A stretch of DNA of 64,000 bases from a virus (IMGVR_UViG_3300022689_000178:1-64000); one strand, 5' to 3'; counted from the first letter of the stretch, positions 7,886-30,154 are shown. The notes: generated by a model from the sequence alone, not told the origin. Numbers and translations: made by a program.

Positions 7886-7925
7886 TAATTGTCATAAATA
7901 TTATATATACAAAACATTAAATTTG
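7883..7925 (+). promoter_or_regulatory. Crp/Fnr-type box plus -7 element
   Basis: TGATAATTGTCA 7883-7894, 23-nt spacer, TAAATTTG 7918-7925. Confidence 0.75.
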
Positions 7926-7943
7926 TCGAAAAAATAATAAGAT

Positions 7944-10868: not shown

Positions 10869-12719
10869 ATGAAAAAAGAAATTAATGGTTTTGAGATAGA
10901 TAAATATAATGTTCATGGTTTTGATTTATCCAATAAAGAGGAGGGTAAAACAACGTCAATATGTGTTTTTTGTTCTAAAGATAGAAAACCACAAAATCAA
11001 AAGCAAAAATGTGTTGAAATTGATTTGAATATTGGATGGTTTACATGTCAGCATTGTGGCGAGTCTGGTCAATTGCATACATTTAAAAAAAAGAAAATAG
11101 ATTCAAAAAGAAAAGTATTTAAAAAGCCGGAATGGAAAAATATAACGAATTTATCCGAGTCAGTTGTAAAATGGTTTGAAAATGAACGTAAAATATCACA
11201 AAATACATTAAAGAATGCAAGGGTGGGTAGTGGTATAAAAAAAATGCCGCCTGAATGGAATAAATCAAAAGTGATATGTTTCACATATTTCCGGTTCAAT
11301 GAATTGATAAATATAAAATATCGTTCACGTTCTAAGGATTTTATGTTATATACCGGAGCGGAATTAATTTTATATGGCTATGATAATATAATTCAATCAA
11401 CAGAATGTATTATTGTTGAGGGTGAAATTGATCAATTGACTTGGCTTGATGCCAGATATAATTATTGTGTATCTGTTCCAAATGGTGCTACTTTAAAACG
11501 TATAAATACTGAATATTTAGATAGTGCCATAGAAGATGGCATTTTTGAAAACAAAGAAAAAATATATATAGGAACGGATAATGATGAGGCCGGAATAATA
11601 TTGAGGGATGAGCTTGTAAGAAGGTTAGGTGCGGAACGATGCTATAAATTGGATTTTGGAGATTATAAAGATTCTAATGCTTTATATGTAGATAGTTGTA
11701 ATAAATACGGAAAGGAAAAAGCAAGAGAAATATTATTGGAGGTAAAAAATAATGCAAAAACTTTTCCTATACAGGGTGTAATTGAATTGTCAGACGTTGA
11801 GTCCGATTTGGACGTATTATATGAAGAAGGATTAAAAAAAGGCCTTAGTTTGCCATTTGAGGATTTATCCATAACGGTCGATTTGGGGAGGATTTTAACG
11901 ATTACAGGCATACCCGGACATGGTAAAACCGCAGGGGTGCATCAAATTTTATCCTATTTTTCTACTGTTTATGATTATAAAGCTGGCATATTTACTCCAG
12001 AATCATATCCACCAAAATTGTTTTTTTCATTAGCTATTGAAATAATATGCGGTTGTAAATTTAATAGCAAATATTTAAAAAAACAGGATTATATACAAGC
12101 AAAAGACTTTATAAAATCATATTATAAGTTTATATATCCAGAATCATTTTATTTGGATGATATATTAGAATCTGCCAGACAGCTAGTATATAGAGTAGGT
12201 ATTAAAATATTGGTGATAGATGCTTATAATAATGTTTTACACAAAATGCAAAAGTTTGAACGTGATGATTTATACGTTGAACGGTTTTATATTAAATTGC
12301 ATGAATTTGCTAAAAGATATAATATTTTAATAATTCTTGTCGCTCATCCGGTTAAGATTGAAAGGAGAAAAGATGGTTCATTTAATATTCCTACTGCTTA
12401 TGACATAAAAGGTGGTTCGGCTCATTATGAGAAAAATGATTTTATAATGTGTTTTTATCGGAATTATAAAGAGAAATTAACCGATGTAATAGTACAAAAA
12501 ATAAAATTCAGACATCTTGGAGAGGTGTGTTCAAAAAGCTATAAATTCAATGGATATAATAGTAGGTTTTATTTATCTACAATGGATAAAGATAATAGTA
12601 ATTGGATAAAAAATCCACCGATATTAGAAAGTGAAAACATGGAATTTGATGGACATTTAATTAATAATAATGATGGAGACATATTTGATAGAATGGAAGG
12701 AGATGAAGCTCCATTTTAA
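10869..12719 (+). CDS. primase-helicase (T7 gp4/Twinkle-like)
   Basis: Zn finger (CVFC...CQHC), TOPRIM (VEGEID, TDND.AG), Walker A GIPGHGKT, VIDAYN, LVAHP; acidic tail. Confidence 0.93.
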   Translation: MKKEINGFEIDKYNVHGFDLSNKEEGKTTSICVFCSKDRKPQNQKQKCVEIDLNIGWFTCQHCGESGQLHTFKKKKIDSKRKVFKKPEWKNITNLSESVVKWFENERKISQNTLKNARVGSGIKKMPPEWNKSKVICFTYFRFNELINIKYRSRSKDFMLYTGAELILYGYDNIIQSTECIIVEGEIDQLTWLDARYNYCVSVPNGATLKRINTEYLDSAIEDGIFENKEKIYIGTDNDEAGIILRDELVRRLGAERCYKLDFGDYKDSNALYVDSCNKYGKEKAREILLEVKNNAKTFPIQGVIELSDVESDLDVLYEEGLKKGLSLPFEDLSITVDLGRILTITGIPGHGKTAGVHQILSYFSTVYDYKAGIFTPESYPPKLFFSLAIEIICGCKFNSKYLKKQDYIQAKDFIKSYYKFIYPESFYLDDILESARQLVYRVGIKILVIDAYNNVLHKMQKFERDDLYVERFYIKLHEFAKRYNILIILVAHPVKIERRKDGSFNIPTAYDIKGGSAHYEKNDFIMCFYRNYKEKLTDVIVQKIKFRHLGEVCSKSYKFNGYNSRFYLSTMDKDNSNWIKNPPILESENMEFDGHLINNNDGDIFDRMEGDEAPF

Positions 12720-13614: not shown

Positions 13615-13654
13615 TAATTGTCATAAAATATTATATTTAATTAATTTAATTTTG
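13612..13654 (+). promoter_or_regulatory. Crp/Fnr-type box plus -7 element
   Basis: TGATAATTGTCA 13612-13623, 23-nt spacer, TAATTTTG 13647-13654. Confidence 0.75.
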
Positions 13655-13674
13655 TAGTATAAAAAAAAGGAAAT

Positions 13675-14253
13675 ATGGATTTAAAAAGATGTTATATAGA
13701 TGTTGAAACAACCGGTGTAAAGCATTGGAAAAATTGTGTCATACAATTAGCTGGCATTATTGAGATAAATAATAAAATTAAAGAAATATTTGAGTTTAAG
13801 CTTGCCCCTCATCCTAAAGCTAAAATTGAACCTTCCGCATTAGAAGTGAGTGGTTATACATTAGAACAAATAAAAAAATTTCCTGATAGATTTATTTCAT
13901 TCAATCAATTTACCGACATATTAAATAAATATGTTGATAAGTATAATAAAAAAGATAAATTCTTTTTTGTTGGATATAATTCATCTTTTGATGTTAATTT
14001 CATACGGGGTTTATTTAAGCAATGTAATAATGATTATTATGGTGCATATTTTTGGTCAGGGAGTATTGATATAATGGCATTGAGTTTATATGGATTAGCG
14101 AATGAAAGATATAAAATGTCAAATTTTAAATTAATGACAGTTGCAAGGCAATTAGGGATTCAAATAGATGAATCAAAATTACATGATGCCTTATATGACA
14201 TTCAAATTACACGAGATATATTTTTAATATTTGAACGATCTATAATTAAATAA
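13675..14253 (+). CDS. DEDDh 3'-5' exonuclease (DnaQ-like)
   Basis: IDVETTG, GYNSSFD, LHDALYD. Confidence 0.92.
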   Translation: MDLKRCYIDVETTGVKHWKNCVIQLAGIIEINNKIKEIFEFKLAPHPKAKIEPSALEVSGYTLEQIKKFPDRFISFNQFTDILNKYVDKYNKKDKFFFVGYNSSFDVNFIRGLFKQCNNDYYGAYFWSGSIDIMALSLYGLANERYKMSNFKLMTVARQLGIQIDESKLHDALYDIQITRDIFLIFERSIIK

Positions 14254-14279
14254 AATTTATAAATTAAAATTTTAATACC

Positions 14280-15107
14280 ATGAATAAAGAATCACGTAGA
14301 GAAAGAAGGCGTAAAAATTTATCAGGCCAAACTATTCCAACACTTGATATAATATCACGGTTTTCTGTAAAGGAAAATGGAGGAAAACCCAAATTCCGTT
14401 ATTGGAATAGAGATAATGGCGATAAGGGGGAAGAGGTTTTTTTTAATAATCAAATTGAAGGAATATTAATAGGTGAGGCGATGCAATTTAGCGCTTATGA
14501 TAATGAAAATGAAGTAATGTATAATAGTTCAATGTATTTACGGAAAAACAATAAAATTGCTTTATTTAAAAAAGGTAATAAGGTTGCAAGTGGTACATTG
14601 GAAAATTTGGAGAAATATCTTGTTAGTGAAGGGGTTTCACAAATAAAGAAAAGATGGATATATATAATTTTAACAAAAACCGGATTAATATCAGTTGAAA
14701 CAAATGTATCTATTGCCATTGATCAAATAAAGCAAATTAAGAAAAATAATAAAGATGCTTTTATTGATAATTTCATTGTTTTAAAACCGGATGTATATGA
14801 TCCTGATGATAAATATTTCTCACAGGGATTACATAAAAGAATGAAAATTACAAAGGCTAAGAAAAACTATCCATTTTTTGCACGTATTGAAGTTGGCGAT
14901 GAAATTTCGGAAAATGATTTTGATGAGTATAATGAAGAGTTTTATGCGGAACAATTTACCGAATGGACGGATTTTATCATGGCCGATGGATATGAAAAGG
15001 TAGATAATGATGGTGAAACTTATAATGAAAATAGTAAGTCGAAAGATTCTTTTGTAGAAAATGGAGATGATATGGAATCAGACGAGACGGATGATTTGCC
15101 ATTTTAA
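14280..15107 (+). CDS. putative single-stranded DNA-binding protein
   Basis: Acidic tail ending DDLPF; located in the replication module. Confidence 0.6.
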   Translation: MNKESRRERRRKNLSGQTIPTLDIISRFSVKENGGKPKFRYWNRDNGDKGEEVFFNNQIEGILIGEAMQFSAYDNENEVMYNSSMYLRKNNKIALFKKGNKVASGTLENLEKYLVSEGVSQIKKRWIYIILTKTGLISVETNVSIAIDQIKQIKKNNKDAFIDNFIVLKPDVYDPDDKYFSQGLHKRMKITKAKKNYPFFARIEVGDEISENDFDEYNEEFYAEQFTEWTDFIMADGYEKVDNDGETYNENSKSKDSFVENGDDMESDETDDLPF

Positions 15108-15119
15108 TTTTATGCAAAT

Positions 15120-15398
15120 ATGGTAGAGGCAGTTGCAAGATTCATAAAATTATACTTTCAAGAGTTTAATGGTGGAAAAAATAGCAGAGTATTAATTCGG
15201 TTATATATAAAAGATTTGAAATCATTTATATTAACTAATAAATGCGATAATGAATGGATGGATGTGGATATGTATGTTTCTTTTAATTTGCGGTATCATA
15301 TAAAATTGTTCAAGAAAAATGATCCGGTTAAAGTGCGATTTATGTTTAGTCATAAATATAAAGATTTTCAATTGTTGAATATTTCTATTTATAATTAA
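15120..15398 (+). CDS. small OB-fold-like hypothetical protein
   Basis: 92 aa; FKKNDPVKVRF pattern. Confidence 0.5.
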   Translation: MVEAVARFIKLYFQEFNGGKNSRVLIRLYIKDLKSFILTNKCDNEWMDVDMYVSFNLRYHIKLFKKNDPVKVRFMFSHKYKDFQLLNISIYN

Positions 15399-15399
15399 A

Positions 15400-15819
15400 A
15401 TGATTAAAGAATATTTTGCAGTTAGAAATGAATCGGAAAAACGGAATTTATACAGATCATTGAAAAATACAGAATTTCCTTTTTGTGTTGTCATTCGGAA
15501 TATAGAGAATGTACGATCAGTAAAAGAAAATTCTTATTTGTGGGGAGTTGTTTATGCTTATATTTCAGATTATACCGGACATACTATAGAATTTATTCAT
15601 AAATTTTATAAAAAATTGTTTTTACAAAAACTTGAAGTATTGTCCGGTAAATTAGTTTTAACGAATGCAAGCACTAAAGATATAAGTACATATATGTTTA
15701 ATTATTATATTGAACGTGTAAAAGCACATGCGTTATTGGAGTTGGATATATATATACCTGATCCAAATGAATTATTAAATGATAGTGAAACATTGAGCTT
15801 ACAGTTAAAATATGAATAG
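15400..15819 (+). CDS. NinB/YbcN-like recombination protein
   Basis: RSVKENSYLWGVVY..ISDYTG..H...STKDIST..F..YIE..IYIPDP. Confidence 0.75.
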   Translation: MIKEYFAVRNESEKRNLYRSLKNTEFPFCVVIRNIENVRSVKENSYLWGVVYAYISDYTGHTIEFIHKFYKKLFLQKLEVLSGKLVLTNASTKDISTYMFNYYIERVKAHALLELDIYIPDPNELLNDSETLSLQLKYE

Positions 15820-15828
15820 AAACTAAAA

Positions 15829-16440
15829 TTGATTAAAATGCAAAAAAAAGATTTTTATTTTAAGGGAGTTAAATTATTGCAAGAAAAAGGCAAATCGGTA
15901 GTATACTATGATGAACGGATTGTAATAAAAAATGAAAGTGGCGAGAATGAAGAGAAGTATATTTACACTACTTGTATGCCACCGTATTTCCCACACGATG
16001 ATTTAAAAATGGAATTTAAACGATTAATTCCGTTGTATGCTAAAATGTGTAAAAGGCACGAATCTGAAGTAAGAGTTACATATTTAGGCATAGAGAAAAA
16101 GAAGGAAAATATGATTTATGTTTTACGTGGTGTGGTAAGAGAACCGGCTGGATACTATAATTCTTATAATCCGCATAAATTAAATGAAAAACTTAGAGAA
16201 TATTATGATGAGAATAATATTTTACATAAGATTGCAGAAAAAATCATTAAGGAAACATTTGATTGGGTAACAGGCAAGAAAAATAGTAATTCAAATATTC
16301 AACGATTGTGGGAAGAAGAGGATTTAAAAATAGCTCATGAAGGTATTCCAATTGAAGGTATATCGGATATTTTAATGGAAGAAGATGTAAGTTTTGAAAC
16401 TGAAACTCAAATTGAATCTGAACCTGAATCCGAATCCTAA
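15829..16440 (+). CDS. hypothetical protein with acidic tail
   Basis: 203-aa ORF followed by a terminator. Confidence 0.7.
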   Translation: MIKMQKKDFYFKGVKLLQEKGKSVVYYDERIVIKNESGENEEKYIYTTCMPPYFPHDDLKMEFKRLIPLYAKMCKRHESEVRVTYLGIEKKKENMIYVLRGVVREPAGYYNSYNPHKLNEKLREYYDENNILHKIAEKIIKETFDWVTGKKNSNSNIQRLWEEEDLKIAHEGIPIEGISDILMEEDVSFETETQIESEPESES

Positions 16441-16452
16441 ATTGAAAAATAA

Positions 16453-16484
16453 AAAAACCGTCTTTATTTATAAAGACGGTTTTT
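16453..16484 (+). terminator. intrinsic terminator
   Basis: AAAAACCGTCTTTA-TTTA-TAAAGACGGTTTTT. Confidence 0.85.
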
Positions 16485-16558
16485 AATGCTCTTTGAATTT
16501 GAACGATTAATACAATACAAAAATAATAAATAATTTTCAATAAAACAAAGTTTTAATT

Positions 16559-16825
16559 ATGGAATTAATTCATGTATCAATTATCGTTTTAATTTTAGTT
16601 GTTATTAATATGATTGTATATAAATTATTGAAAACAACAAATAAAAAATGGAAAGATAAAAATTCGTGCGAAGTAAGTAAAATAAAAAGAGAATTTGGAC
16701 ATAACCATACAGCATATATGCCGGGTTATCATAGGATAGAAAGTATTTGTGTATATTTTAATTTTTTTGGATTTATATTATTTATCATTTTATTGATTTT
16801 ACAGATTGTTAATTACATTATTTAG
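16559..16825 (+). CDS. membrane protein (2 TM)
   Basis: Hydrophobic N- and C-terminal segments. Confidence 0.65.
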   Translation: MELIHVSIIVLILVVINMIVYKLLKTTNKKWKDKNSCEVSKIKREFGHNHTAYMPGYHRIESICVYFNFFGFILFIILLILQIVNYII

Positions 16826-16833
16826 TTATAATT

Positions 16834-16983
16834 ATGGACAAAGAAAAGATACAAAAACAGATTGACAAGAACAGGGCACTGATTGAGAAAGCTCTTGAAA
16901 TGAACGATACCGAAATGATGTACTACATAGTGCGAAGATTAGCCAAAGACAATGAAAGATTAATAGAAAAGCTAAAGAAATAA
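16834..16983 (+). CDS. 49-aa coiled-coil protein (not in the ORF track)
   Basis: MDKEKIQKQIDKNRALIEKALEMNDTEMMYYIVRRLAKDNERLIEKLKK; typical leader. Confidence 0.65.
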   Translation: MDKEKIQKQIDKNRALIEKALEMNDTEMMYYIVRRLAKDNERLIEKLKK

Positions 16984-16994
16984 TTTTTTATTAT

Positions 16995-17048
16995 TGGTAG
17001 CAGTTAGTATAACACACCGTTTTAATGTGTGTTATACATTGTTAGCTG
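16995..17048. repeat. attC-like site 1 (partial)
   Basis: GTATAACACAC/GTGTGTTATAC hairpin 17007-17037, then TTGTTAGCTG. Confidence 0.6.
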
Positions 17049-17090
17049 ACTGGTGCGGATAATTTAGTACAAATCTTAATAAATGAACGA

Positions 17091-18074
17091 ATGATAGTAA
17101 AAGAAAAAATAGGGAGGGGGTTTTTATATTTTATGGACGTATTGGAGGGTTTAAAATTACTACTTGACAATAGCCAAGATTTAATAATAGTTGACCCACC
17201 TTATTACAAGACTGTAAATGAGAAATGGGATAAACAATGGAAGACCGAAAAAGAATATTTAGACTGGTGTAGATTATGGTTTGCTGAATGCGTAAGAGTA
17301 CTGAAAGACACAGGTAGTTTTTATTGCTATGGAAACTTTGACATACTGAGCAAACAAAAAGTATTGATATTTGATGATGCGCTGAACTTTAGGCAAAACA
17401 TTACATTAAACAAAGGATTGAAAAGTATTGCTGGAAGAACAAGCGACAAACTTAGAATGTTCCCGACTGCAAGTGAATACTTGGTGTTTTACACTAAACA
17501 AGAAATGTGGTTTGAAACACCCTTTTCAATTATTATGAAAAGACAAATGAAAGAAAAGGGATTAACTCAGATTGATATTTCTAAACTTATACTTTCACGA
17601 AATGGTAATTTAACTGGATGGGTGCATAATAAGATTAAGGGCATACAATTGCCAACAGCAGAGCAATGGAACAAAATATGCAATTTGTTTGAAATTAAAA
17701 ATGAATATGATTTATTGTGTGAAAGCTACGAAGAACAAAGGTTTACTTTTAACCTACCAACAGGACAAACCGATGTTTGGGATTTTACGCCCGACAAAGT
17801 TAGATTTGGAAATAAGACACAGAAACCACAAGACATAAGTAGAAGAATTATAAAAGCAAGTAGTAACGAAGAACAAAGTGTATTGATACCATTTGCAGGG
17901 AGTGGAAGTGAATGTGAAGCTTGCGAAGTATTGGGTAGAAATTGGACTGCGTTTGAGAATGACCAATTTAGCATTGACATTATACACGAACGATTTAAAA
18001 ACCTTAAAGCTTTTGAAAAAAGCAAAGAGCGTGGGCTTTTTTCTTTTACGGATGAACAGAACAAAGCTGATTAA
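17091..18074 (+). CDS. beta-class DNA amino-methyltransferase with an internal HTH-like insert (cassette gene)
   Basis: VDPPY, RVLKDTGS, TQKP, PFAGSGS; insert MKEKGLTQIDISK...GIQLPTAEQWNKICNLF. Confidence 0.9.
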   Translation: MIVKEKIGRGFLYFMDVLEGLKLLLDNSQDLIIVDPPYYKTVNEKWDKQWKTEKEYLDWCRLWFAECVRVLKDTGSFYCYGNFDILSKQKVLIFDDALNFRQNITLNKGLKSIAGRTSDKLRMFPTASEYLVFYTKQEMWFETPFSIIMKRQMKEKGLTQIDISKLILSRNGNLTGWVHNKIKGIQLPTAEQWNKICNLFEIKNEYDLLCESYEEQRFTFNLPTGQTDVWDFTPDKVRFGNKTQKPQDISRRIIKASSNEEQSVLIPFAGSGSECEACEVLGRNWTAFENDQFSIDIIHERFKNLKAFEKSKERGLFSFTDEQNKAD

Positions 18075-18094
18075 ATGCACCAACGTAGCACTTG

Positions 18095-18181
18095 CAGCTA
18101 ATGAAAATACACTTGCATAGTTTGATTTTTTGTGTAGTGCAACGGAACAAAAAACAAATTATGTCAAGTGTAATGTTATGA
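18095..18181. repeat. attC-like site 2
   Basis: CAGCTAAT-GAAAA-TACACTTGCATAGTTTGATTTTTTGT...ACAAAAAACAAATTATGTCAAGTGTA-AT-GTTATGA. Confidence 0.8.
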
Positions 18182-18222
18182 GTATTTTTATTTATTTTTC
18201 CGTTGTGCCATATAATATCAAA

Positions 18223-18447
18223 ATGAAAAATACAATAACGATAAATAATATAGAATTTGAAATAGGAACTATAAGTATAAATGAATTTGGCGGGCAAACA
18301 GTGTCCTCATTAATTGTTGGTGTTTATGCTGAAAACAAGGATCAGAATATATTTGTAAAACATAATGTATTCAACAGTACAATAAAAAACTTAGAATTAT
18401 TGAAAGATATTTTAACCGTTTTAACTACAAAAAAATATGATTTTTAA
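18223..18447 (+). CDS. hypothetical protein (cassette gene)
   Basis: ATG 18223 (MKNTITIN); the longer track start runs through the hairpin site. Confidence 0.6.
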   Translation: MKNTITINNIEFEIGTISINEFGGQTVSSLIVGVYAENKDQNIFVKHNVFNSTIKNLELLKDILTVLTTKKYDF

Positions 18448-18508
18448 AACAGGTTTTTCAAATAAATTAATGTCGAAAAAGAAAATATAAACTTTTAAAT
18501 AAATAAAA

Positions 18509-18853
18509 ATGGAAAGTATAAAAATAGAAATTGATAGAAAAAACATTCTTGATATTGTAAATAATAAAGTGTCGGAAAATATTTTATCTTATATGGACAA
18601 AAATATGGAAGATATTAATAAAAGTATTGAGAAATATTTTAAGTTATCTTTTTTTCAGGATAAAAAAACACAGTTTGAAAATGCACTCGATTGGACAATT
18701 GAAGATGCTTTTAGAGAAGGAATAAAGACAGCTATGGAGGATTTAAAATTCAAAGAACTTATTGCCGAAAAAGCAAAAGAAATTTTAACAAATGATGATT
18801 TTATTAAAGAATTAGCTGTTGCAAAAGTCAAAAGTTCGCTTGGTTTACATTAA
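18509..18853 (+). CDS. hypothetical helical protein (cassette gene)
   Basis: 114 aa; stop codon directly followed by CCATAAC. Confidence 0.7.
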   Translation: MESIKIEIDRKNILDIVNNKVSENILSYMDKNMEDINKSIEKYFKLSFFQDKKTQFENALDWTIEDAFREGIKTAMEDLKFKELIAEKAKEILTNDDFIKELAVAKVKSSLGLH

Positions 18854-18982
18854 CCATAACGGCTACTTGTAAGAATAGTAGCAGAATTGAAACACGAATA
18901 TTGAAATAATTACAAACTTAAATACAATGGTAGCAGCTAAAAAGACCCTATAACCTGCTATTATTTTTACAAATTGTTATAG
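18854..18982. repeat. attC-like site 3
   Basis: CCATAAC-GGCTAC-TTGTAAGAATAGTAGCAG...CTGCTATTATTTTTACAA-ATT-GTTATAG. Confidence 0.8.
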
Positions 18983-19001
18983 GGCGTTTATTTTAAAAAT
19001 T

Positions 19002-19199
19002 ATGATTGCAAAAAAAAAAGGAATAGAAATATTTCACAAACATTGGGATGAAGGATTATCTGATAGACAAGCAAAGGAATGTGCCTTAATAAGTGTTGGT
19101 GAAATTATTAAAGAATATGACGAAGAAATATTGGAATCTAACGATGTATATCGACAGCAATATTGGATAGAAGTAAGGGATTATTTAAATGCCCTATAA
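19002..19199 (+). CDS. hypothetical protein (cassette gene)
   Basis: 65 aa (AKECALISVGEII...YWIEV); flanked by GTTATAGGGCGTTTA and TAAATGCCCTATAAC. Confidence 0.75.
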   Translation: MIAKKKGIEIFHKHWDEGLSDRQAKECALISVGEIIKEYDEEILESNDVYRQQYWIEVRDYLNAL

Positions 19200-19294
19200 C
19201 GACAGGGGTTGGAGGCGGTTTTTTGCTTTGCAATTTTGCGAAGTGAAACGAGCAAATGTAAAGTTTAAAACTGACTTCCAAACCTCTGTTAGCA
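19194..19294. repeat. attC-like site 4
   Basis: CTATAAC-GAC-AGGGGTTGGAGGCGGTTTT...AAAACTGACTTCCAAACCTCT-GTTAGCA. Confidence 0.8.
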
Positions 19295-19343
19295 ACACTT
19301 TTTTTTATCTTATCGAAATACAAACATTTTAAATATAAATATT

Positions 19344-19670
19344 ATGAATACAGAATTGTACGATAAAGCATGGGAATTACTTGAAAGAAAAGGCTTAAAA
19401 CTTGGCGAAAGAATAATGGTAAGAAGTTGTTTTGCAGGTGCTTACAAAAATGATTATCCTTTCATTGCCGCTAAACATAAAAAAGGCGAAGTTGAATATT
19501 ATCATTCTCAAATAAAAGAAATAAACAATTTAATGTTTAAATCTAAAAATGAAGTAATAATGGCAAATGCTATTTATGAAAACACAAAAGAGAATTTCAA
19601 TCAAAATGATTTTATTCAGCATTTAAAATTTACTTTTAGAATTTTGGGTGTTAGTAGCGACTGGTGTTAG
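19344..19670 (+). CDS. hypothetical protein (cassette gene)
   Basis: 108 aa; flanked by GTTAGCAACA and TGTTGCTAAC. Confidence 0.75.
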   Translation: MNTELYDKAWELLERKGLKLGERIMVRSCFAGAYKNDYPFIAAKHKKGEVEYYHSQIKEINNLMFKSKNEVIMANAIYENTKENFNQNDFIQHLKFTFRILGVSSDWC

Positions 19671-19674
19671 TTGT

Positions 19675-19742
19675 TGCTAACGTAATTTGCTTTATTTCTG
19701 TTTTTGATGTATGAAAAAATTAAATTAAAGCAAATGATATGA
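19675..19742. repeat. attC-like site 5 (core mutated GTT>GAT)
   Basis: TGCTAAC-GTA-ATTTGCTTTA...TAAAGCAAAT-GATATGA. Confidence 0.7.
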
Positions 19743-19793
19743 GTATTTTTATTTATTTCATTTGCAAGTTTTAAAAATAAATAAATTTCGTAA

Positions 19794-20339
19794 ATGGATA
19801 TACCGGAAAAAATAAAGGCATCCGATTTTCAAGAAATGATTAGTAAGGGAATCATTAATGTAGATGGCAAAAGAATAACACAAACTAAATTATTGCCCGA
19901 ATATGAAAAGTATATTGAAAAAGAAAATCAATGTAAACAATCAGAAACAAATAAATACTTATTGATTGAATTTGAGGTATATCTTGAAAAAAAATATGAA
20001 TGGAAAAAAAAGAAAGGACAAACAGTTGAAGTATTATTTAACGTCTTAGGTAATACAAAAAGAAAATTTAGAGCAGATTATTACATTCCAGAAATAAAAA
20101 CAATTATTGAAATAAATGGTGGAGAATTTGGTTACCCGGTTGTATGTAATAATTGCGGAAATCATGTTAAAAATAAAAAAGGGAAACAAGTATTTTCTCA
20201 AGGTGGACGGCATACCAGAGGTGGCGGAGGCTATGAGAATGATTTATATAAAATGAATTTGTCTCAAAAAATGAATTTAAAGTATTATCAATTTACATAT
20301 AAGCAATTAAAACAACGAATTTATAAAAAATTTATATAA
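19794..20339 (+). CDS. PD-(D/E)XK endonuclease, DUF559/Vsr-like fold, with a CxxC insert
   Basis: RKFRADYY..KTIIEINGG...GGRHTRG..YENDLYKMN. Confidence 0.75.
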   Translation: MDIPEKIKASDFQEMISKGIINVDGKRITQTKLLPEYEKYIEKENQCKQSETNKYLLIEFEVYLEKKYEWKKKKGQTVEVLFNVLGNTKRKFRADYYIPEIKTIIEINGGEFGYPVVCNNCGNHVKNKKGKQVFSQGGRHTRGGGGYENDLYKMNLSQKMNLKYYQFTYKQLKQRIYKKFI

Positions 20340-20379
20340 TGATTAGTGATGAATATTTAGACAAATTTTTTAACAAGAA

Positions 20380-21138
20380 ATGGCAAGAACAATCATAACT
20401 GATCCATTTTATACGCCTAAAGGTAAGGCACGGGAATATACAGGAAAAGATAATATAGGGCTAAATGTATATAAATATTGTCCAAATGGATGTATTTATT
20501 GCTATTGTCCTTTTATGTTGTGTAAAAAACCTATTGAATTTTATAATGAGCCGGATTATACCGATAATATAATCGCACGTGTAAAATTATATGCTTATAG
20601 ATATGCCAGAAAAGAAGTATTTTTAAGTTTTATTGGCGATATTGGAATTATCGATAAAAATAATTATTTTGTGCAAATATTAGAAATATTTAAAAATCAT
20701 AATATAAGACCAAGAATTTTAACGAAATCAAATATTCATAATTTATTACCATTGTTGAAAGAATGTAATGCTATATTAGGTTGTACAATTGTTACTATAA
20801 AAGAATCAATAAGGGAAAAAAATGAGCCATTTGCATCCACAATTTCAGAAAGATTACAATTATTGAATGAAGCGAAATGTAATGGCATAAAAACATGGAT
20901 TAGCATTGAACCAATTATAGATGTTTATGAAATTTTAACAATTGTAAGATATACACAGAAATATATTGATTATTATTTTATCGGAAAAATGAATTATAAT
21001 GATATTGGAAGTAATGAAACTAAATTAAAGGAAGTTTTGCCAATGGTATATGAATTTTTATCTATGGCAAAGATATCTTTTACTTTTGGAGAAGATACGA
21101 AATTATTAATAAATAAGTGTGGATATACCAAAGTTTAA
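20380..21138 (+). CDS. radical SAM protein (SPL-like subgroup)
   Basis: LNVYKYCPNGCIYCY (CxxxCxxC), ILTKS, EP.AS...ERL, WISIEP. Confidence 0.88.
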   Translation: MARTIITDPFYTPKGKAREYTGKDNIGLNVYKYCPNGCIYCYCPFMLCKKPIEFYNEPDYTDNIIARVKLYAYRYARKEVFLSFIGDIGIIDKNNYFVQILEIFKNHNIRPRILTKSNIHNLLPLLKECNAILGCTIVTIKESIREKNEPFASTISERLQLLNEAKCNGIKTWISIEPIIDVYEILTIVRYTQKYIDYYFIGKMNYNDIGSNETKLKEVLPMVYEFLSMAKISFTFGEDTKLLINKCGYTKV

Positions 21139-21757
21139 ATATAATGAAAAATTAATATGTGAATTGATTTTTTATAATCGTAGGAAATTTGGTTATATTA
21201 CCAAATATACAGCATTAGTAATATGGCAAATGTGCCAGAAAATTATTCAAAGGGGTGTATATTTGTATAAAAAAAATGAATACAAGCATAAAACGAAATC
21301 AATATTTACCGAAGATGATATAAAAATTGATTTATATGAGTCAGTATTTTGTAATGTATTAATAAAATTTGATAAGAATAAAGGAACTTTTAGATATTTG
21401 TTAAATAAGTCTATAAATTACAGAATACTTCGCTTAAAAGAATTAAATAGGGTAAAAAATAATATATCCGTAAAATTAAATGGACAGGATGAAACAAAAG
21501 GTAATGAAAGTATATTAAACGAAGATTATAGAGTTTTATCCGGAACTGATTTTAATAGGGATTTAATAATATTTGGTTTAAAGAATTATGGTTTTACGGA
21601 TAATGAGATTAATGTGATAAATGATATTATAGATGGGTATAAAACAAGTAAAGAAGACAATATAAATGATGATATTTGTATACGAAATAATATTAGTTAT
21701 TTTGAATACCAACAAATTAAAAAAAAATTTAAAAAAATTATACATAACTTAATTTAA
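21119..21757 (+). CDS. putative phage sigma factor (sigma70 region-2-like)
   Basis: EDDIKIDLY...IKFDKNKGTFRYLL resembles region 2; C-terminal FTDNEINVI...DICIRNNIS HTH-like. Confidence 0.55.
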   Translation: MDIPKFKYNEKLICELIFYNRRKFGYITKYTALVIWQMCQKIIQRGVYLYKKNEYKHKTKSIFTEDDIKIDLYESVFCNVLIKFDKNKGTFRYLLNKSINYRILRLKELNRVKNNISVKLNGQDETKGNESILNEDYRVLSGTDFNRDLIIFGLKNYGFTDNEINVINDIIDGYKTSKEDNINDDICIRNNISYFEYQQIKKKFKKIIHNLI

Positions 21758-21763
21758 AGAAAA

Positions 21764-22420
21764 ATGGATAAAGAATCAATACGTAAAGAATTAGAGAAAA
21801 AAATATATTTTCATAAACAGTTTAATATGGTTTCCATGAAAGCATATTCTTTAAATGGAAATTTGTCAAAAGAATATGAATATTTATGCGAAATCTATGC
21901 CGATACTGACAAGTATTATATTGGTAATTGGTATAAAGAACCAGAAATATCTGTTTTGTTTCCTAAAAAAGTTACTTATCCGGTAACTGAAATGTTTAAA
22001 TATAAAGTAAAAAAAGCAATTAAAAAAAATGATATTAATTATATAAATTTGGTGGGAATAGAATATAAACCCATGCCGGAAATAGAGGTAATTTATAAAA
22101 AATTAATTGGTCTAAAAGCAGCCGATCAAAAAGATGTACTTAGTTTATCATTTGAAAAATCAAATGAATATTTTAAGTATGTATATCGACAAAAGAATAA
22201 CATTGATTTATTATGGGTATTGAATAACTGGGAGCAAAAAATATCGTGGCGATTATTGGACGTAAATTCATTATTATTTGGACAATATTTAAAGGATTGT
22301 ATAGATAGAGAAAAAATAGATATAAGAACTAATACAATAAAACAGATGCATGTTGAACGAAATAAAATAATATTATTATTAAAAGAAAATATCCATGATA
22401 AGCAAACAGCAAATAATTAA
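21764..22420 (+). CDS. hypothetical protein
   Basis: 218-aa ORF. Confidence 0.7.
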   Translation: MDKESIRKELEKKIYFHKQFNMVSMKAYSLNGNLSKEYEYLCEIYADTDKYYIGNWYKEPEISVLFPKKVTYPVTEMFKYKVKKAIKKNDINYINLVGIEYKPMPEIEVIYKKLIGLKAADQKDVLSLSFEKSNEYFKYVYRQKNNIDLLWVLNNWEQKISWRLLDVNSLLFGQYLKDCIDREKIDIRTNTIKQMHVERNKIILLLKENIHDKQTANN

Positions 22421-22676
22421 GATTATTCCAAAATGTTTTTCATTGATTATAGTATCAATGTTATCAGCAAATAAAGATAAAGAATATTGGATTGGAACAT
22501 TAATAGCTAAAACAGATTATACTGATTTTTATCAAGTAGATGGTATTGATATTTCGGATATTGTATATAGTTCATTGAGTCATGTAGAACAGGAGGCCAG
22601 AATATTAAAATTATTGACAGAAGAGGAGTATTTAAGTGTTAAAATTTATGGTTATGTGCAATTGCAAGAGTATTAA
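22395..22676 (+). CDS. hypothetical protein
   Basis: 93-aa ORF. Confidence 0.6.
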   Translation: MISKQQIIKIIPKCFSLIIVSMLSANKDKEYWIGTLIAKTDYTDFYQVDGIDISDIVYSSLSHVEQEARILKLLTEEEYLSVKIYGYVQLQEY

Positions 22677-22920
22677 TAAATTTAAAGTTGGACAAAAAGT
22701 GATAGCTAAAAAATTAGCTTGGTCGGGAGATGGCAATCAAACACCATTTCATAAAATTGATGTTGAGGGTGAAATAACATCAATAAAAGGAATATCGGAT
22801 AAACATAATAGTATGTATAAATATGAATTTACTTGGCATAAAGGACGGATGTATACAAATGGAAATCCACATAATTCGGGTGAAATTACAGGCAAATTAA
22901 TTCCGGCAAATAATAAATAG
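22636..22920 (+). CDS. hypothetical protein (SH3/KOW-like)
   Basis: KFKVGQKV motif; the true start may be a downstream ATG. Confidence 0.6.
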   Translation: MLKFMVMCNCKSINKFKVGQKVIAKKLAWSGDGNQTPFHKIDVEGEITSIKGISDKHNSMYKYEFTWHKGRMYTNGNPHNSGEITGKLIPANNK

Positions 22921-22940
22921 TAATAAATTAATAGGGAGAA

Positions 22941-23162
22941 TTGAAAATGAGAATTAAGATTAATTTTAAAATAATTCAAGCAGGAAAAAATGAGGTGGGT
23001 TCTGTTGAATTAGATTTAAGCAATTATGCAATTACTAAAAAAGAATGGAATATGATACGTGAAGATCAAAAAAAGAAATTACTTGAGGATTATATAGTGC
23101 TATGTTATGATACGATAGATTATGATTCAATAGATAATATCAATTATTATGAAATTAAATAA
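22941..23162 (+). CDS. hypothetical protein
   Basis: 73-aa ORF. Confidence 0.6.
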   Translation: MKMRIKINFKIIQAGKNEVGSVELDLSNYAITKKEWNMIREDQKKKLLEDYIVLCYDTIDYDSIDNINYYEIK

Positions 23163-26310: not shown

Positions 26311-28386
26311 TTGATCAAAAATTTAATGGAAATAAATAAATCAAATATATCACAAATAAAAGATGTTGAATTATTAAGATTATTAAAGGGTGAGGTTTCT
26401 AAAAGTTTATATGTGTTTGTACAATTTGTTTTCCGGATATTACTTCCAAATGAGAAATTTCAAACAAACTGGCATATAAAATATATTTGTGATATTTTGC
26501 AAAAAGAAACTGAGCGAATTGTACAGCAAAAACCAAAAGATAAAAATATACTTATTAATGTGCCCCCACGTAGTTTGAAATCAATTATATGTAATGTAGC
26601 ATGGCCAGCATGGAGTTGGATAAAATCACCTTCGTTAAAATGGATTAGCTCATCTTGCCGTAAAGATTTATCCTTAAAAATGAATGTAGATTGTAGAAAA
26701 GTAATAGAAAGTACATTATATAGAACATTGTTTCCGGATTTAATGATTGCACACGGCCAAAACCAAAAATCAAGATTTGAAAATTTATATGGAGGCAGTA
26801 AATTAGCATGTTCAACGGAATCCGGTGTTGTAGGTGAAGGTGCTGATATTATAATTTTTGATGATCCATTAGAACCAAAAAAACGAAGATCAGATTTGGA
26901 ACGTGAAAAAGCAATTGAACATGTAAAGCAATTGTCAACACGTTTAAATGATTCAAAAGTTGGATTAATAGCCGGTATAATGCAGCGATTACATGAAACT
27001 GACCCATCCGGTTATTTGTTGAAAAATAAAAGTGATTCATGGTTTCATATATGTATACCGGCTGTTCTGACAAGTAAAGTAAAGCCTAAAGAATTAGAAA
27101 AAAAATATATAGATAAATTATTTTTTCCGGATAGGTTTCCGGAGCTTGTATTGAAAGAAAAGGAATATGATTTGGGAGTGGTAGATTATGAAGGACAATT
27201 TTTGCAAAACCCATCTCCGGTTGCTGGTAATATAATAAAACGTGAATGGTTTCCTTTTATATCGTATGAGAAATTCACTGTATTATTAAAAAAAGCAAAA
27301 AATGCACAAAAGATATATATTACTGATAGTGCTTTAACAGAAGAAAAAGAAAATGATGCAACTGGAACAATAGGAGGAGTATTAATAAATGGATATTGTT
27401 ATATATTTTGTGCCGAAAAAGTTAGATTAGAATTTCCTGAATTAATAGAATACATTCCGCTTTTTCTTGAAAGAAATGAATATGATTATAAAAGTATTTT
27501 ACAAATAGAACCTAAAGTAAATGGCCATTCTATTGTCCAACAATTAAAAAAAGATACAACTATTAATGTAATGAAGTTAAAAGCTCCTACCGATTCAAAA
27601 GAAGAACGGTTGCAAACAAGGAGTTATGTGATTAAAACAGGGCGAGTTATTATAGTAACGGGCGTGTGGAATGAAGAATTTATAGATGATATTGTAGGTT
27701 TCCCATATAGGGATGATAAAGAATTTGTAGATTGTTTATGTTATTTAATAGATGCTTGTTTTGATGAATCATTGAAAAAAATATTTACGTATGATACATT
27801 AATTATATCATTATTTGGAATGGATAATGATATATTTTATAATATTATAAAAGATTGTCCGAGATGGGATAGTTTTGAGTATATCATAATGTCAATTTAT
27901 GAAGGTTATGATGGTTCAGATTATAATATTATATCTGTATTTGGAATTGATAAAGATAATACGTTTTATTTAATAGCATTTAAACGTATTAAATGTAATC
28001 CATTAGAATTTTCAAAAAGAATTATGGCATTATATACCAATTTTCAACCAAATTATGTAATTACATTAAATAACAGTTTAATGCAAATACAAGATTATTT
28101 TAAAAACCAAGAAATTCGTATAATATCTGAGAAAGAAAGTAGATATAAATTATCATTAATTGAAAGTTTAGATGTAATTGCTGTTTGGTGGAAACAAGGC
28201 CGGATAAAATTACCGAATGGTAGTAAATATGCACGGGAACAAAGTGAAATTATAATGCAAGAATTTAATCAATTAAATTATATTGATATAAAAGATAAAA
28301 AACTGTTTATAAAGAAGGGTATTATAAACACATTCTGGCTTGCATTTAAAGGTTTATATATAGTTAATAATGACATACAATTTTAA
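26311..28386 (+). CDS. terL: terminase large subunit with C-terminal extension
   Basis: NWHI, INVPPRSLKS (Walker A), IIFDDP (Walker B), IMQRLHETD, YITDSA nuclease domain. Confidence 0.93.
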   Translation: MIKNLMEINKSNISQIKDVELLRLLKGEVSKSLYVFVQFVFRILLPNEKFQTNWHIKYICDILQKETERIVQQKPKDKNILINVPPRSLKSIICNVAWPAWSWIKSPSLKWISSSCRKDLSLKMNVDCRKVIESTLYRTLFPDLMIAHGQNQKSRFENLYGGSKLACSTESGVVGEGADIIIFDDPLEPKKRRSDLEREKAIEHVKQLSTRLNDSKVGLIAGIMQRLHETDPSGYLLKNKSDSWFHICIPAVLTSKVKPKELEKKYIDKLFFPDRFPELVLKEKEYDLGVVDYEGQFLQNPSPVAGNIIKREWFPFISYEKFTVLLKKAKNAQKIYITDSALTEEKENDATGTIGGVLINGYCYIFCAEKVRLEFPELIEYIPLFLERNEYDYKSILQIEPKVNGHSIVQQLKKDTTINVMKLKAPTDSKEERLQTRSYVIKTGRVIIVTGVWNEEFIDDIVGFPYRDDKEFVDCLCYLIDACFDESLKKIFTYDTLIISLFGMDNDIFYNIIKDCPRWDSFEYIIMSIYEGYDGSDYNIISVFGIDKDNTFYLIAFKRIKCNPLEFSKRIMALYTNFQPNYVITLNNSLMQIQDYFKNQEIRIISEKESRYKLSLIESLDVIAVWWKQGRIKLPNGSKYAREQSEIIMQEFNQLNYIDIKDKKLFIKKGIINTFWLAFKGLYIVNNDIQF

Positions 28387-28474: not shown

Positions 28475-30154
28475 GTGAGTCTTTTCAAAAAATCAAATAA
28501 GTTTTATACTCCTACGTATACACCCACATTAAAAAAAACAATTATTACACCGGAACAGCGAATAGTTGAAGAGGAGATGGTATTACAAAAAGCAATTAAT
28601 AGCCAAAATCCTGAATTAATTGCAAAAGCATTACAAAATATAGAAAATAATTCCAATTTACAAGTAGAATCTAAAGGTAAAAAAATCAATCCTTTAGATT
28701 TTATTACTTTTTCCGGCTATAAAGAAAAATGGCAAGAACCATCATGGGAATTATTAGATGTAATGGGCAGACAAGAAAATGTTAATGCCATTAAAAAAGT
28801 AAGGAAAAATCAAACAATTCCTTTTACTCAAAGACAAAAGGATAAATTCAGTATTGGCTACACAATTAATAAAAAAGATAATTCAAAAATTACAAAAGTA
28901 GAAGAAAAACAAATTGAACAATTATATAATTTCTTTGACAATTGTGGTTTTAATGAATATTCTGTATTGATTGGAAGTAAATTGGTTAAGAAAAAAAGAA
29001 GAGCTAAATTTTCAGATTGGATGAAAACAATGGTAGATAATAGTTACACTTATGATCATGCTCCCTATGAAATTGTTTTAAATAGTTTAGGTGAACCGAT
29101 TTATTTTACAACTCTTGATGCAAAAACTATTAGACAAGCGGATTCTTATTTTGAAGAAATTTATTCAGGTTCAAGGGAACAGAAAAATGGAGAATATCCT
29201 AAATGGATTCAAATTATTAATGATGTTGAAGTATCGGCTTTTTATGAGGATGAAATAGATGTTGTTATCCGAAATCCACAAGAAAACATATATAATTATG
29301 GATATGGCCGATCTGAATTGGAGGATTTAATTAAGGTAGTTACTAATTTGATAAATGCTTATAAACATAATTCACGGGCTTTTTCTGAAATATTAGCTGA
29401 CAGAATAATTAACATAAAAGGCAATACCACTACTCCCCGTTTAAATGAATTTAGACAATTAGTTAGAGCTACTTTAATGGGTACAAATAATTCTCATGGC
29501 AATTTAATTACTGCAAGCGAGAAAGGAATGGAAATAATTAAATTGAATGAGAATAATAAAGATATGGAATATAGTCAATGGATTCGGATATTAGTATCTT
29601 TATTGTGTTCATTATATACCATTGCGCCTGAAGAGATAAATTTTGAATCCGTAAAAAGTGCCGCCGCCCCGTTAAATGAAAAAAATAATGAAAAATTATT
29701 AAAATATTCTAAAGATTTAGGTTTACGCCCCATTCTTAAAACATTAGAAGATAGTTTAAATAATAAAATAACATGTAAATTTTTTGATAGCAAATATCAA
29801 TTAAATTTTGTTGGATTGGATGCGGATTCACCGGAACAATACTTGCAAAATCAAAAATTAAAATTAGAAACTACCTATACAATTAATGAAATAAGGGCTG
29901 AGGATAATAGACCACCGATTGAGGGCGGAGATATTATATTAAGTCAAGTATTTACAGGTTATTTACAAGGATTACAACAATCACAACAAAATGACAATCA
30001 AGACCAGCAAAATAAAGAAGGTGAAGAACAATTGAAGGAACAAAATATAGAAACAGAACAGCAAGAAAAAGCATATAAAGCATTTAATACCGAAAATATA
30101 TATCAAAATCTAATTGTTAATTATTTGAATAAAATTGAAGAAAATAATGTGTGA
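28475..30154 (+). CDS. portal protein
   Basis: After TerL; IRNP..YGYGRSELE, KDMEYSQW, IAPEEIN, GLRPIL, TINEIRAE..PIEGGD. Confidence 0.92.
   Translation: MSLFKKSNKFYTPTYTPTLKKTIITPEQRIVEEEMVLQKAINSQNPELIAKALQNIENNSNLQVESKGKKINPLDFITFSGYKEKWQEPSWELLDVMGRQENVNAIKKVRKNQTIPFTQRQKDKFSIGYTINKKDNSKITKVEEKQIEQLYNFFDNCGFNEYSVLIGSKLVKKKRRAKFSDWMKTMVDNSYTYDHAPYEIVLNSLGEPIYFTTLDAKTIRQADSYFEEIYSGSREQKNGEYPKWIQIINDVEVSAFYEDEIDVVIRNPQENIYNYGYGRSELEDLIKVVTNLINAYKHNSRAFSEILADRIINIKGNTTTPRLNEFRQLVRATLMGTNNSHGNLITASEKGMEIIKLNENNKDMEYSQWIRILVSLLCSLYTIAPEEINFESVKSAAAPLNEKNNEKLLKYSKDLGLRPILKTLEDSLNNKITCKFFDSKYQLNFVGLDADSPEQYLQNQKLKLETTYTINEIRAEDNRPPIEGGDIILSQVFTGYLQGLQQSQQNDNQDQQNKEGEEQLKEQNIETEQQEKAYKAFNTENIYQNLIVNYLNKIEENNV

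Follow-up and report, generated by a model that had tools for sequence, protein, structure and literature searches.

In the attC sites of integrons, unpaired bases choose the reactive strand, and the VCR arrays of Vibrio are sedentary chromosomal integrons with homogeneous attC sites. Another kind of locus, called CALIN, is a cluster of attC sites lacking an integrase (PMC4889954). In a screen of 10,705 phage genomes with IntegronFinder and HattCI, integrase-less attC clusters were found in virulent phages, among them the virulent Polaribacter phage P12002L, whose attC-like cluster encodes methyltransferases (PMC9892861). One of its sites, P12002L_attC2, recombined with attI1 by the action of IntI1, on one strand only, and another, P12002L_attC1, was the only one of six tested sites without verified IntI1 recombinants (PMC9892861). 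In T4-type phages, gene shuffling mediated by PeSL motifs and the formation of mini-circles have been documented (PMC2839356, PMC4122927). The locus described here is an array of small gene units in IMGVR_UViG_3300022689_000178:1-64000 (the window), that is, the first 64 kb of a 76.8-kb viral contig from IMG/VR with a completeness rating of 72%.

It is likely that positions 17007-19681 of the window hold a short array of three or four mobile cassettes belonging to an integron-like system shared by Bacteroidota and their phages. The first-pass annotation, made from the DNA of the window alone, had proposed integron-like cassettes that are moved by a recombinase encoded elsewhere; this proposal is supported by covariation of unit ends, by exchange at junctions and by a recombinase at the array end, as found in other contigs.

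Array layout and complementarity of unit ends

As read from the sequence, the anatomy of the array is that of a junction module followed by a gene unit, in which GTT-X closely precedes the start codon and X'-AAC coincides with the stop codon or closely follows it (X and X' being complementary arms). The features are as follows (ORF, open reading frame).

17007-17037, plus strand: hairpin module A; 11-bp stem, loop CGTTTTAAT, then ATT and the GTT of the next unit; attC-like junction form
17041-18102, plus strand: cassette 1 (methyltransferase), ending in a mutated AAT
17041-17059, plus strand: 5' arm of cassette 1, GTTAGCTG and then ACTGGTGCGG, the inner shell motif
17091-18074, plus strand: N6/N4 DNA methyltransferase of 327 amino acids (PF01555, E 2e-28; phrog_67)
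18075-18102, plus strand: 3' shell of cassette 1, ending in CAGCTAAT
18108-18172, plus strand: hairpin module B, between cassette 1 and the next GTT at 18175
18175-18860, plus strand: possible decayed cassette 2, a weak candidate with arms GTTATGAGTATT to ATTAACCATAAC and ORFs at 18223-18447 and 18509-18853
18861-18975, plus strand: module D, a structured junction module that begins directly after an AAC
18976-19200, plus strand: canonical cassette unit 3; arms 18976-18990 and 19186-19200; 65-amino-acid ORF at 19002-19199
19202-19289, plus strand: hairpin module E, a long imperfect hairpin from unit 3 to unit 4
19288-19681, plus strand: cassette unit 4; arms 19288-19297 and 19672-19681; 108-amino-acid ORF at 19344-19670
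19682-19793, plus strand: junction to the phage backbone, with a hairpin and the motif ATGAGTATTTTTATTTATTT; no cassette arms beyond

The junctions are contiguous from 17041 to 19681, with four or five AAC-module-GTT junctions in 2.7 kb, and the methyltransferase cassette is the first of the array because no AAC arm occurs upstream of module A. At the junction cores, GTT and the bases that follow it read GTTAGCT, GTTATGA, GTTATAG and GTTAGCA.

The three complementary end pairs listed by the first-pass annotation are all present at the positions it gave. In unit 3, GTTATAGGGCGTTTA (18976-18990) pairs with TAAATGCCCTATAAC (19186-19200) at 14 of 15 positions in Watson-Crick fashion, and as the sole exception is a G.T at position 11, the arm helix is continuous. 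In unit 4, GTTAGCAACA (19288-19297) and TGTTGCTAAC (19672-19681) are fully paired (10/10), and in cassette 1, GTTAGCTG (17041-17048) pairs with CAGCTAAT (18095-18102) at 7 of 8 positions plus a terminal G.T. The arms of the putative cassette 2 are paired at 9 of 12 positions, with T/T at position 11, and its 3' arm fits AT-N6-Y-AAC. Stop codons fall in or just before the TAAC end, as had been claimed: the TAA of unit 3 (19197-19199) lies inside the CCCTATAAC of the 3' arm, the TAG of unit 4 (19668-19670) 11 nt before the AAC end, and the TAA of cassette 1 (18072-18074) 28 nt before the end of CAGCTAAT. The AAC end thus follows the stop by +1, +11 and +28 nt in the window, the commonest spacings in the wider family being +1, +11 and +13.

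The significance of these pairs within the window was assessed by comparing the upstream region of each gene with its own downstream region, all mismatched gene pairs serving as the control. By this measure, the pair of unit 3 is a clear outlier (p=0.0007), that of unit 4 is marginal (p=0.013), and that of the methyltransferase is not significant when the window alone is considered (p=0.09). Moreover, the window as a whole is no richer than shuffled sequence in GTT...AAC pairs of at least 11 nt. Once other contigs are compared (see below), all three end pairs are solid.

Unit 3 is the only strict canonical unit of the window, where none occurs on the other strand. The units at 17041-18102 and 19288-19681 are arm variants that are also present in other contigs; in particular, unit 4 has a variant arm without the position-11 G.T, and the same arm type was found in L023 (3114-3456) and L015 (contigs used for comparison are designated by L numbers). 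The 65-amino-acid ORF of unit 3 belongs to phrog_21441, a family with no assigned function, and neither Pfam nor PHROGs gave a function for the ORFs of 74, 114, 65 and 108 amino acids. The ORFs of cassette 2 had no family matches in Pfam or PHROGs and no relatives among the fetched loci. For the 108-amino-acid cargo of unit 4, no homologue was found in GenBank phages, and the protein atlas returned nothing above chance.

The hairpins at the junctions were folded as single-stranded DNA, and their stability is expressed as a z score. On the plus strand, module A reaches -11.4 kcal/mol (z -3.9) and module B -18.1 kcal/mol (z -2.6; -2.4 on the minus strand), and the hairpin at the backbone junction (F, 19685-19735) has a z of -2.5. 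Module E folds well only in the gene sense (-19.0 kcal/mol and z -3.25 on the plus strand, -11.0 kcal/mol and z -0.24 on the minus strand). The stability of the 18846-18992 stretch as a whole was not unusual in this folding. The first-pass annotation had described the intergenic hairpins as different in sequence and alike in structure; the general hairpin form is indeed common, whereas a single shared structure did not emerge. The junction modules of the window differ from one another, and module D occurs there once.

When GenBank phages were searched with the nucleotides 15000-22000, only two short intergenic pieces matched, and both are junction modules. Module A (17007-17044) is 95% identical to positions 2161-2198 of Tenacibaculum phage JQ, where it also lies just upstream of a methyltransferase, whose flanks are GTTACCCTTA and TAAGGGTAAC. 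In the P12002L genome, P12002L_attC1 is composed of X'-AAC, GGCTAC, a stem, the loop TCGTTTTAATG, the return stem, ATT and GTTAGGC; it is the same module type as positions 17007-17048 of the window, with the same loop and the same ATT-GTTAG, and the P12002L site of this type was called attC by HattCI (PMC9892861). P12002L_attC2 is located after the last methyltransferase cassette, and its R' box is the reverse complement of the 3' arm of that cassette. The P12002L precedent supports the general idea and, on our reading, the proposed orientation, not the site of the window itself.

The second match, which covers module D (18855-18997), is 75% identical to a region of Cellulophaga phage phi19:3, in which the homologous module precedes a non-homologous ORF of 65 amino acids. 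The three arm copies have changed together, being CACCTTAAC, GTTAGGGTG and CACTCTAAC in phi19:3 versus CCCTATAAC, GTTATAGGG and CCCTATAAC in the window. Module D contains a box, AATAGTAGCAG (18874-18884), that forms a long-range, covarying helix of 9-12 bp with CTGCTATTATT (18955-18965) in 29 of 33 copies, and its extra (third) arm copy, CCCTATAAC at 18946-18954, pairs locally with the 5' arm GTTATAGGG at 18976-18984; the two covarying helices are interleaved in a pseudoknot-like order. A conserved loop runs to the GTT at 18976, and the 22-nt loop is found in 35 IMG/VR contigs. Single-stranded stretches such as TAAAAAGAC are conserved in most of the module-D contigs inspected. Module D has no match in Rfam, and no convincing match to the canonical Bacteroidota promoter (TTG ... 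TAnnTTTG) was seen by eye. It may be a promoter plus leader, an RNA element, an accessory binding site, or a mixture of these.

A direct repeat of 45 nt (80% identical) occurs at 18153-18197 and 19714-19758, upstream of the ORFs that start at 18223 and 19794, and ends in ATGAGTATTTTTATTTATTT (also at 18177-18197). This repeat is a possible promoter and marks the final array-backbone junction.

The split-arm family, junction exchange and recombinases

The canonical unit at 18976-19200 evidently belongs to a large family of units that begin with GTT-R-N6-GT and end with AT-N6'-Y-AAC. In most of the 35 contigs that bear the module D loop, the 16 nt from GTT onward find their best complement downstream (13-16 nt), ending 1, 11 or 13 nt past the stop codon of the first ORF; +11 nt is the commonest AAC spacing of the family, and the ORFs that follow the loop range from 49 to 151 amino acids. 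An ORF-anchored GTT...AAC scan of module-D loci disclosed tandem arrays of up to approx. 10 units. In 51 non-identical units, the helix covers exactly 14 positions, after which pairing stops: GTT and AAC occupy positions 1-3, position 4 is A-T or G-C, positions 5-10 are approx. 97% Watson-Crick, position 11 carries G in the 5' arm opposite T in the 3' arm (46/51), position 12 is T-A (49/51), and two further pairs follow. As positions 4-10 are represented by 36 different sequences, it is pairing rather than sequence that is maintained. YAAC and GTTR are invariant in the family, and the next three positions are free, without the RRR-Y of the classical core boxes (R'' RYYYAAC and R' GTTRRRY). Neighbouring units have different arm sequences and share only YAAC/GTTR and two or three further bases.

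The strict pattern was also tested on 144 loci that had been picked as relatives of the methyltransferase of the window, the gene orientation being known beforehand. All 86 strict units in these loci lie on the gene strand. When seven pair types were allowed at position 11, 87 units were obtained, of which 86 have G/T and one has T/T, with no Watson-Crick pair and no A/C. As only 2 strict units occur in 656 kb of primase-kin phage loci, the contribution of chance is negligible and the phage lineage is mostly devoid of units. Altogether, the same architecture with covariation appears in more than 130 units outside the window, never antisense. The claim that the two ends of each unit are complementary thus extends, with covariation, to dozens of other phage contigs. 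The arms and the ORFs between them are not tied to each other: arms identical to those of unit 3 flank an unrelated, non-homologous ORF of 87 amino acids in L020, and among 71 unit ORFs compared there was one homologous pair only.

The methyltransferase cassette provides a second line of evidence. Relatives of the enzyme with 70-86% identity are found in many metagenome contigs, which were taken from the JGI collection, and seven of these were aligned with the window. Conservation extends exactly from (T)GTTAGCTGACTGG to GCAGCTAAC, i.e., from GTTAGCTG to CAGCTAAC, and the sequences are unalignable beyond both ends. The methyltransferase pair, which marks these exact edges, is thereby validated. 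At least six contexts of the cassette were seen, with neither the upstream genes nor the downstream sequence related between them, and the hairpin module that precedes it is of at least four kinds among the relatives. Its arms represent a second type, with an 8-bp outer helix, a small internal loop and, around CTGGTGCG, an inner helix that is short; a 1,460-bp block of L011 is also closed by arms of this type (see below). Compared with the CAGCTAAC of the relatives, the CAGCTAAT of the window has T in place of C in the invariant AAC, which reads AAT there and AAC in all relatives.

More distant relatives of the methyltransferase (P0037 and P0065, 65-67% identical) are annotated in Clostridium perfringens and in viral contigs (L043-L046). 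The latter have GGGAGG just before the start codon and plain terminator-like hairpins as flanks, with no cassette arms. Given the Clostridium perfringens relatives and the arm-less L043-L046, the same methyltransferase family occurs inside and outside the cassette system, across phyla.

Exchange at AAC junctions is seen in several sets of contigs. L025 and L035 share a block of 937 bp, 99.7% identical, between unrelated flanks; it runs from just after the upstream AAC to its own X'-AAC and is apparently a recent transfer. A methyltransferase of another family is approx. 90-93% identical over 1.05-1.19 kb in L065, L066, L069, L070 and L107, where the right edge of homology falls at ...CATAAC in four independent pairs and the left edge approx. 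11-18 nt before GTT or at the upstream AAC. Finally, one block of 1,460 bp (L011 3378-4837) distinguishes L011 from L029, two contigs with 99% identity over more than 10 kb. The empty form reads ...ACTAAC|AACCG...; in the filled form, the block starts right after that AAC and has its own end, ...TTTACAAC, so that only AAC is repeated at the ends of the block. The block contains a cassette of 127 amino acids, ORFs of 88 and 131 amino acids, and an arm pair of the methyltransferase-shell type that spans 109 nt and encloses no ORF. To judge from these alignments, cassettes in related contigs move as units with breakpoints at the core site. Thus, the gain, loss or exchange of cassettes at GTT/AAC junctions that the first-pass annotation had anticipated is seen in relatives of the family (the contexts of the methyltransferase and the blocks of 937 and 1,460 bp), none of which comes from the kin of this phage.

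Complete arrays are associated with a recombinase. In L123, L124 and L150, a tyrosine recombinase of 271-288 amino acids (PF13495 and PF00589) is encoded on the same strand and starts approx. 50 nt after the last cassette AAC. The recombinase of L125, a contig left out of the unit scan, is 65% identical to that of L123, and in L126 the gene lies 3.4 kb beyond the array. The best NCBIfam match of these enzymes is NF040815, the archaeal XerA / integron-integrase model (126-147 bits, cut-off 220), and integron integrase TIGR02249 is matched with 74-92 bits (cut-off 265) over the N-terminal half only. Because the best match is the XerA model and the IntI match is below the cut-off and confined to the N-terminal half, the array-end recombinase is classed as a predicted Xer-like enzyme, not an IntI. 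In L014 (3027-3812), a recombinase that follows the units is broken, with an open frame of 75 amino acids and tblastn similarity over approx. 260 residues, which suggests decay of the enzyme in some phages. The 418-amino-acid tyrosine recombinase gp036, encoded near the units of phi19:3, was left out of the system, its similarity to the array-end recombinases being marginal.

The same platform exists on bacterial chromosomes. A profile built from four array-end recombinases was run against 401 sampled Bacteroidota genomes (E<=1e-60), and a homologue was found in 69 of them. A strict unit lies within the 1.5-kb flanks in 10 of the 30 best bacterial loci, and five chromosomal loci extended by 12 kb have 2-5 units, none antisense, that end approx. 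85 nt before the recombinase gene. In three loci, L248, L252 and L260 (genomes G385, G301 and G240), the recombinase gene and the canonical unit beside it are convergent, instead of having the unit upstream on the same strand, and the recombinase frame is 378-386 amino acids long in L248 and L252 and 286 in L260; these may represent a different sub-arrangement.

Proposed mechanism, rival explanations and phage setting

We infer a folded-strand mechanism, its exact crossover point and any activity in this phage along the following lines. The mobile unit would comprise both module and gene unit, beginning directly behind one AAC and ending with the AAC of the unit itself. In a circularised or single-stranded cassette, X'-AAC and GTT-X would pair to form one folded site with the module in its loop, as in attC, and the Xer-like tyrosine recombinase would cut and rejoin at or next to AAC. 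The folding strand is probably the gene-sense strand, because position 11 is a tolerated G.T there rather than an A.C mismatch and because hairpin E is stable only in that sense; the fixed G.T mispair could choose the strand, as unpaired bases do in attC. Viewed on the opposite strand, the layout would be that of a classical cassette with its gene inverted, and this would explain why each cassette has its own 5' module and why the recombinase gene is co-directional. The cassettes of the window (the methyltransferase and the small genes) were probably acquired with an enzyme from the host or from a co-infecting phage, a host-supplied enzyme being plausible because the platform is also chromosomal in Bacteroidota. 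Since it has a mutated core and a decayed unit and lacks the enzyme, the array of the window looks partly decayed, its imported cargo now largely fixed.

Several observations weigh against this explanation. A co-occurring tyrosine recombinase, which the first-pass annotation had suggested looking for, is present at array ends in other phages and on Bacteroidota chromosomes, but the 76.8-kb record contains none of any family (no PF00589 match), nor is there one in two further array-bearing phage genomes with a completeness rating of 100%. Just one of the units in the window is canonical. Neither identical arms around unrelated ORFs nor the third arm copy of module D is predicted by a simple integron model, and because the methyltransferase and the module that precedes it vary independently of each other, what moves as a unit is not clear-cut. 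Every gene-strand asymmetry would fit an RNA structure equally well. P12002L_attC1, the site of module A's type, gave no verified IntI1 recombinants (PMC9892861). Finally, as no close relative of the phage was found, neither an empty site nor cassette polymorphism could be demonstrated for the array itself.

The main rival, which is considered improbable, is enzyme-free modular shuffling, in which arms and modules are conserved expression signals (promoter, leader and terminator "shells") at whose short sequences genes are exchanged between co-infecting phages by homologous recombination, either general or phage-encoded, similarly to PeSLs. Such shuffling would account for module D, which is 75-95% conserved across otherwise unrelated phages and has mosaic edges of its own, for identical arms and modules around unrelated ORFs, for the variable module upstream of the methyltransferase, and for the frequent lack of a tyrosine recombinase in array-bearing phages, including this one; moreover, both PeSL shuffling and mini-circles are known in T4-type phages (PMC2839356, PMC4122927). 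However, homologous recombination is an unlikely cause because the YAAC/GTTR and two or three bases shared by neighbouring units are too little for it, and the L011/L029 block is bounded by the 3-nt AAC repeat only. Expression signals would leave the inverted-complement arms and the never-corrected G/T at position 11 unexplained, as well as the specific recombinase family at the array end in phages and bacteria.

A further explanation, slightly less probable again, is that the arms pair in the mRNA around a small ORF and form panhandles that serve processing, stability or translation control, mobility being incidental. The strand bias is what would be expected of such structures, since the non-Watson-Crick features are all accommodated by the sense strand alone (position-11 G.U, 86 versus 0) and hairpin E folds on the plus strand only; the arms also abut the start codon and contain the stop codon, and the covarying helices of module D, in their pseudoknot-like order, resemble those of structured RNA. 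Panhandles explain neither homology edges and gain or loss exactly at AAC nor the recombinase at array ends, and some arm pairs enclose little or no ORF, e.g., L123 4085-4190 (106 nt) and the 109-nt shell that ends the L011 block. A 14-bp helix beside the start codon would be expected to hinder initiation, and no Rfam family matches. An RNA role may exist alongside DNA recombination.

Ordinary terminators with chance complementarity in AT-rich intergenic DNA can be dismissed almost entirely: although the methyltransferase pair alone has p=0.09, long GTT...AAC pairs are no commoner in the window than in shuffles and plain terminator hairpins occur in many other intergenic regions of the phage, this explanation is refuted by the family and cassette-edge data, namely the canonical pair (p=0.0007), the more than 130 covarying units elsewhere that are never antisense, and the methyltransferase pair that coincides with the exact conservation edges in relatives.

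It is therefore the cassette mechanism that we favour for the array, and on the broader scale we lean, with somewhat less assurance, toward the idea that Bacteroidota and their lytic phages possess a second, independently organised integron-like system, with a small Xer-like recombinase, 14-bp arms split around the gene, a strand-setting G.T and cassettes that bring their own expression module, in which anti-defence genes such as methyltransferases are traded by phages with the aid of a host-borrowed enzyme. If the mechanism is true, site-specific cassette exchange reaches beyond the IntI integrons of Proteobacteria, and marine and gut Bacteroidota phages have a routine route to gain and drop accessory genes, notably anti-restriction methyltransferases. 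It would also provide a molecular basis for the mosaicism of phage "ORFan" early regions, a simple rule (GTT-R-N6-GT ... AT-N6'-Y-AAC) to delimit mobile genes in metagenomes, and a natural experiment on how folded DNA can be used by an Xer-type enzyme that lacks the IntI-specific domain. As a determinant, the invariant G.T is open to direct testing. Taken alone, the array of the window is small and probably inactive; its value is that of a clean member, through which a published prediction of attC-like sites in a phage is linked to a far larger family.

The source of the window is a tailed phage, as indicated by the following genes.

10869-12719: primase/helicase
26311-28386: large terminase
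28475-30154: portal
45868-47430: major head protein

The GC content of the window is approx. 27%, and nearly all genes are on the plus strand. The array sits in a stretch of small genes, with replication genes on one side and a radical-SAM gene (20380-21138) on the other; the ORF of 181 amino acids that follows 19681 has no recombinase domains according to Pfam, PHROGs and a tyrosine-recombinase profile. No close relatives of the phage were found through the radical-SAM protein or the 108-amino-acid cargo, and the nearest primase/helicase is 43% identical.

CCGG occurs 165 times in the window (2.6 per kb). The first-pass annotation had noted its absence across 16725-19802, and there is indeed none between 16721 and 19803; this CCGG-free gap of 3,082 nt is the longest of the window, the next longest being 1,720 nt. 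Judged by the phage's own rate, the gap is unusual; judged by base composition alone (expected 1.2), it is not. The CCGG-free array fits imported DNA of foreign composition. Restriction avoidance was ruled out as its cause, as the remainder of the phage is CCGG-rich. Within the whole window (1-64000), tetranucleotide counts are biased: CTAG occurs 3 times versus approx. 56 expected from trinucleotides, CGCG 2 versus 13, TCGA 36 versus 66, and CCGG 165 times (ratio 1.3). Pressure from restriction or repair in the host may lie behind the strong avoidance of CTAG and CGCG.

At 16453-16484, immediately ahead of the small-gene region, a hairpin formed by a perfect 14-bp palindrome and flanked on either side by T/A runs resembles a bidirectional terminator. 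The motif TGATAATTGTCATAAA is repeated in the intergenic regions 7886-7943, 13615-13674, approx. 38960 and approx. 49905 (reverse), and CAGTAATATT in those near 28390, 37440, 44975, 47510, 51620 and 55880; these motifs resemble phage promoters or operators of two classes. An Rfam search of 14000-23000 (E<=5) gave chance-level matches only, the best being a plastid psbA 3' UTR (untranslated region) model on the terminator at 16453-16484. ARAGORN found no tRNA, and a sigma-70 promoter scan showed no excess over shuffles, such a scan not being meaningful for Bacteroidota promoters.

Comparison with known systems

Of the known systems, PeSLs of T4-type phages (PMC2839356, PMC4122927) resemble the array in that small accessory ORFs, located in plastic regions of lytic phages, are bounded by non-coding stem-loop motifs at which genes are gained, lost or replaced. 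However, PeSLs are direct repeats of one motif and act through homologous recombination, whereas the present arms are inverted and unit-specific and a dedicated recombinase co-occurs with them; within the window, no single promoter plus stem-loop motif was found in direct orientation on both sides of each ORF. The Xer/XerA group (NF040815) is the best family for the array-end recombinase, which has a similar size and domain layout, but unlike Xer enzymes with dif-like sites, this recombinase is tied to cassette arrays rather than to a single chromosomal dif, and its match is below the cut-off. With the VCR arrays of Vibrio, the family shares near-identical sites around unrelated ORFs and chromosomal arrays that adjoin a recombinase gene; it differs in that the arrays are short (2-5 units in the bacterial loci inspected, up to approx. 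12 in phages) and in that the site is split around the gene instead of forming a compact site at one end.

A likeness to integrons, and to CALINs of virulent phages such as P12002L in particular, is also evident. Single-gene units stand in a row, separated by ...YAAC, hairpin, GTTR... junctions, and the start of each unit complements its own end; stop codons fall in the AAC-side box, structure is kept while sequence is not, and methyltransferases are frequent cargo. As in integrons, a tyrosine recombinase of the Xer/IntI superfamily is present at one end of complete arrays. In contrast to a classical integron, no IntI lies next to the array, and no attI or Pc promoter was identified at the arrays. 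Moreover, the arms are 14 bp long with an invariant G.T, as opposed to 7-bp core sites and L boxes with extrahelical bases, and the complementarity of the ends (8-15 nt) is longer. The module that bears the site seems to lie 5' of the gene, since shared blocks extend from an AAC across the module and on to the AAC of the gene itself; the genes would thus face the opposite way, and the recombinase gene is downstream and co-directional. No paper was found in the literature on 14-bp split arms, a position-11 G.T or an array-end Xer-like recombinase. Compared with the split-arm family itself, the window contains one unit (unit 3) with the canonical arm helix on the gene strand, together with the characteristic position of the stop codon relative to the arm and the characteristic junctions, and has no Xer-like recombinase directly after the last cassette. 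Because it is present without a recombinase in the phage record (76.8 kb, approx. 72% complete), the array of the window resembles a CALIN, although, strictly speaking, it does not belong to the integron family.

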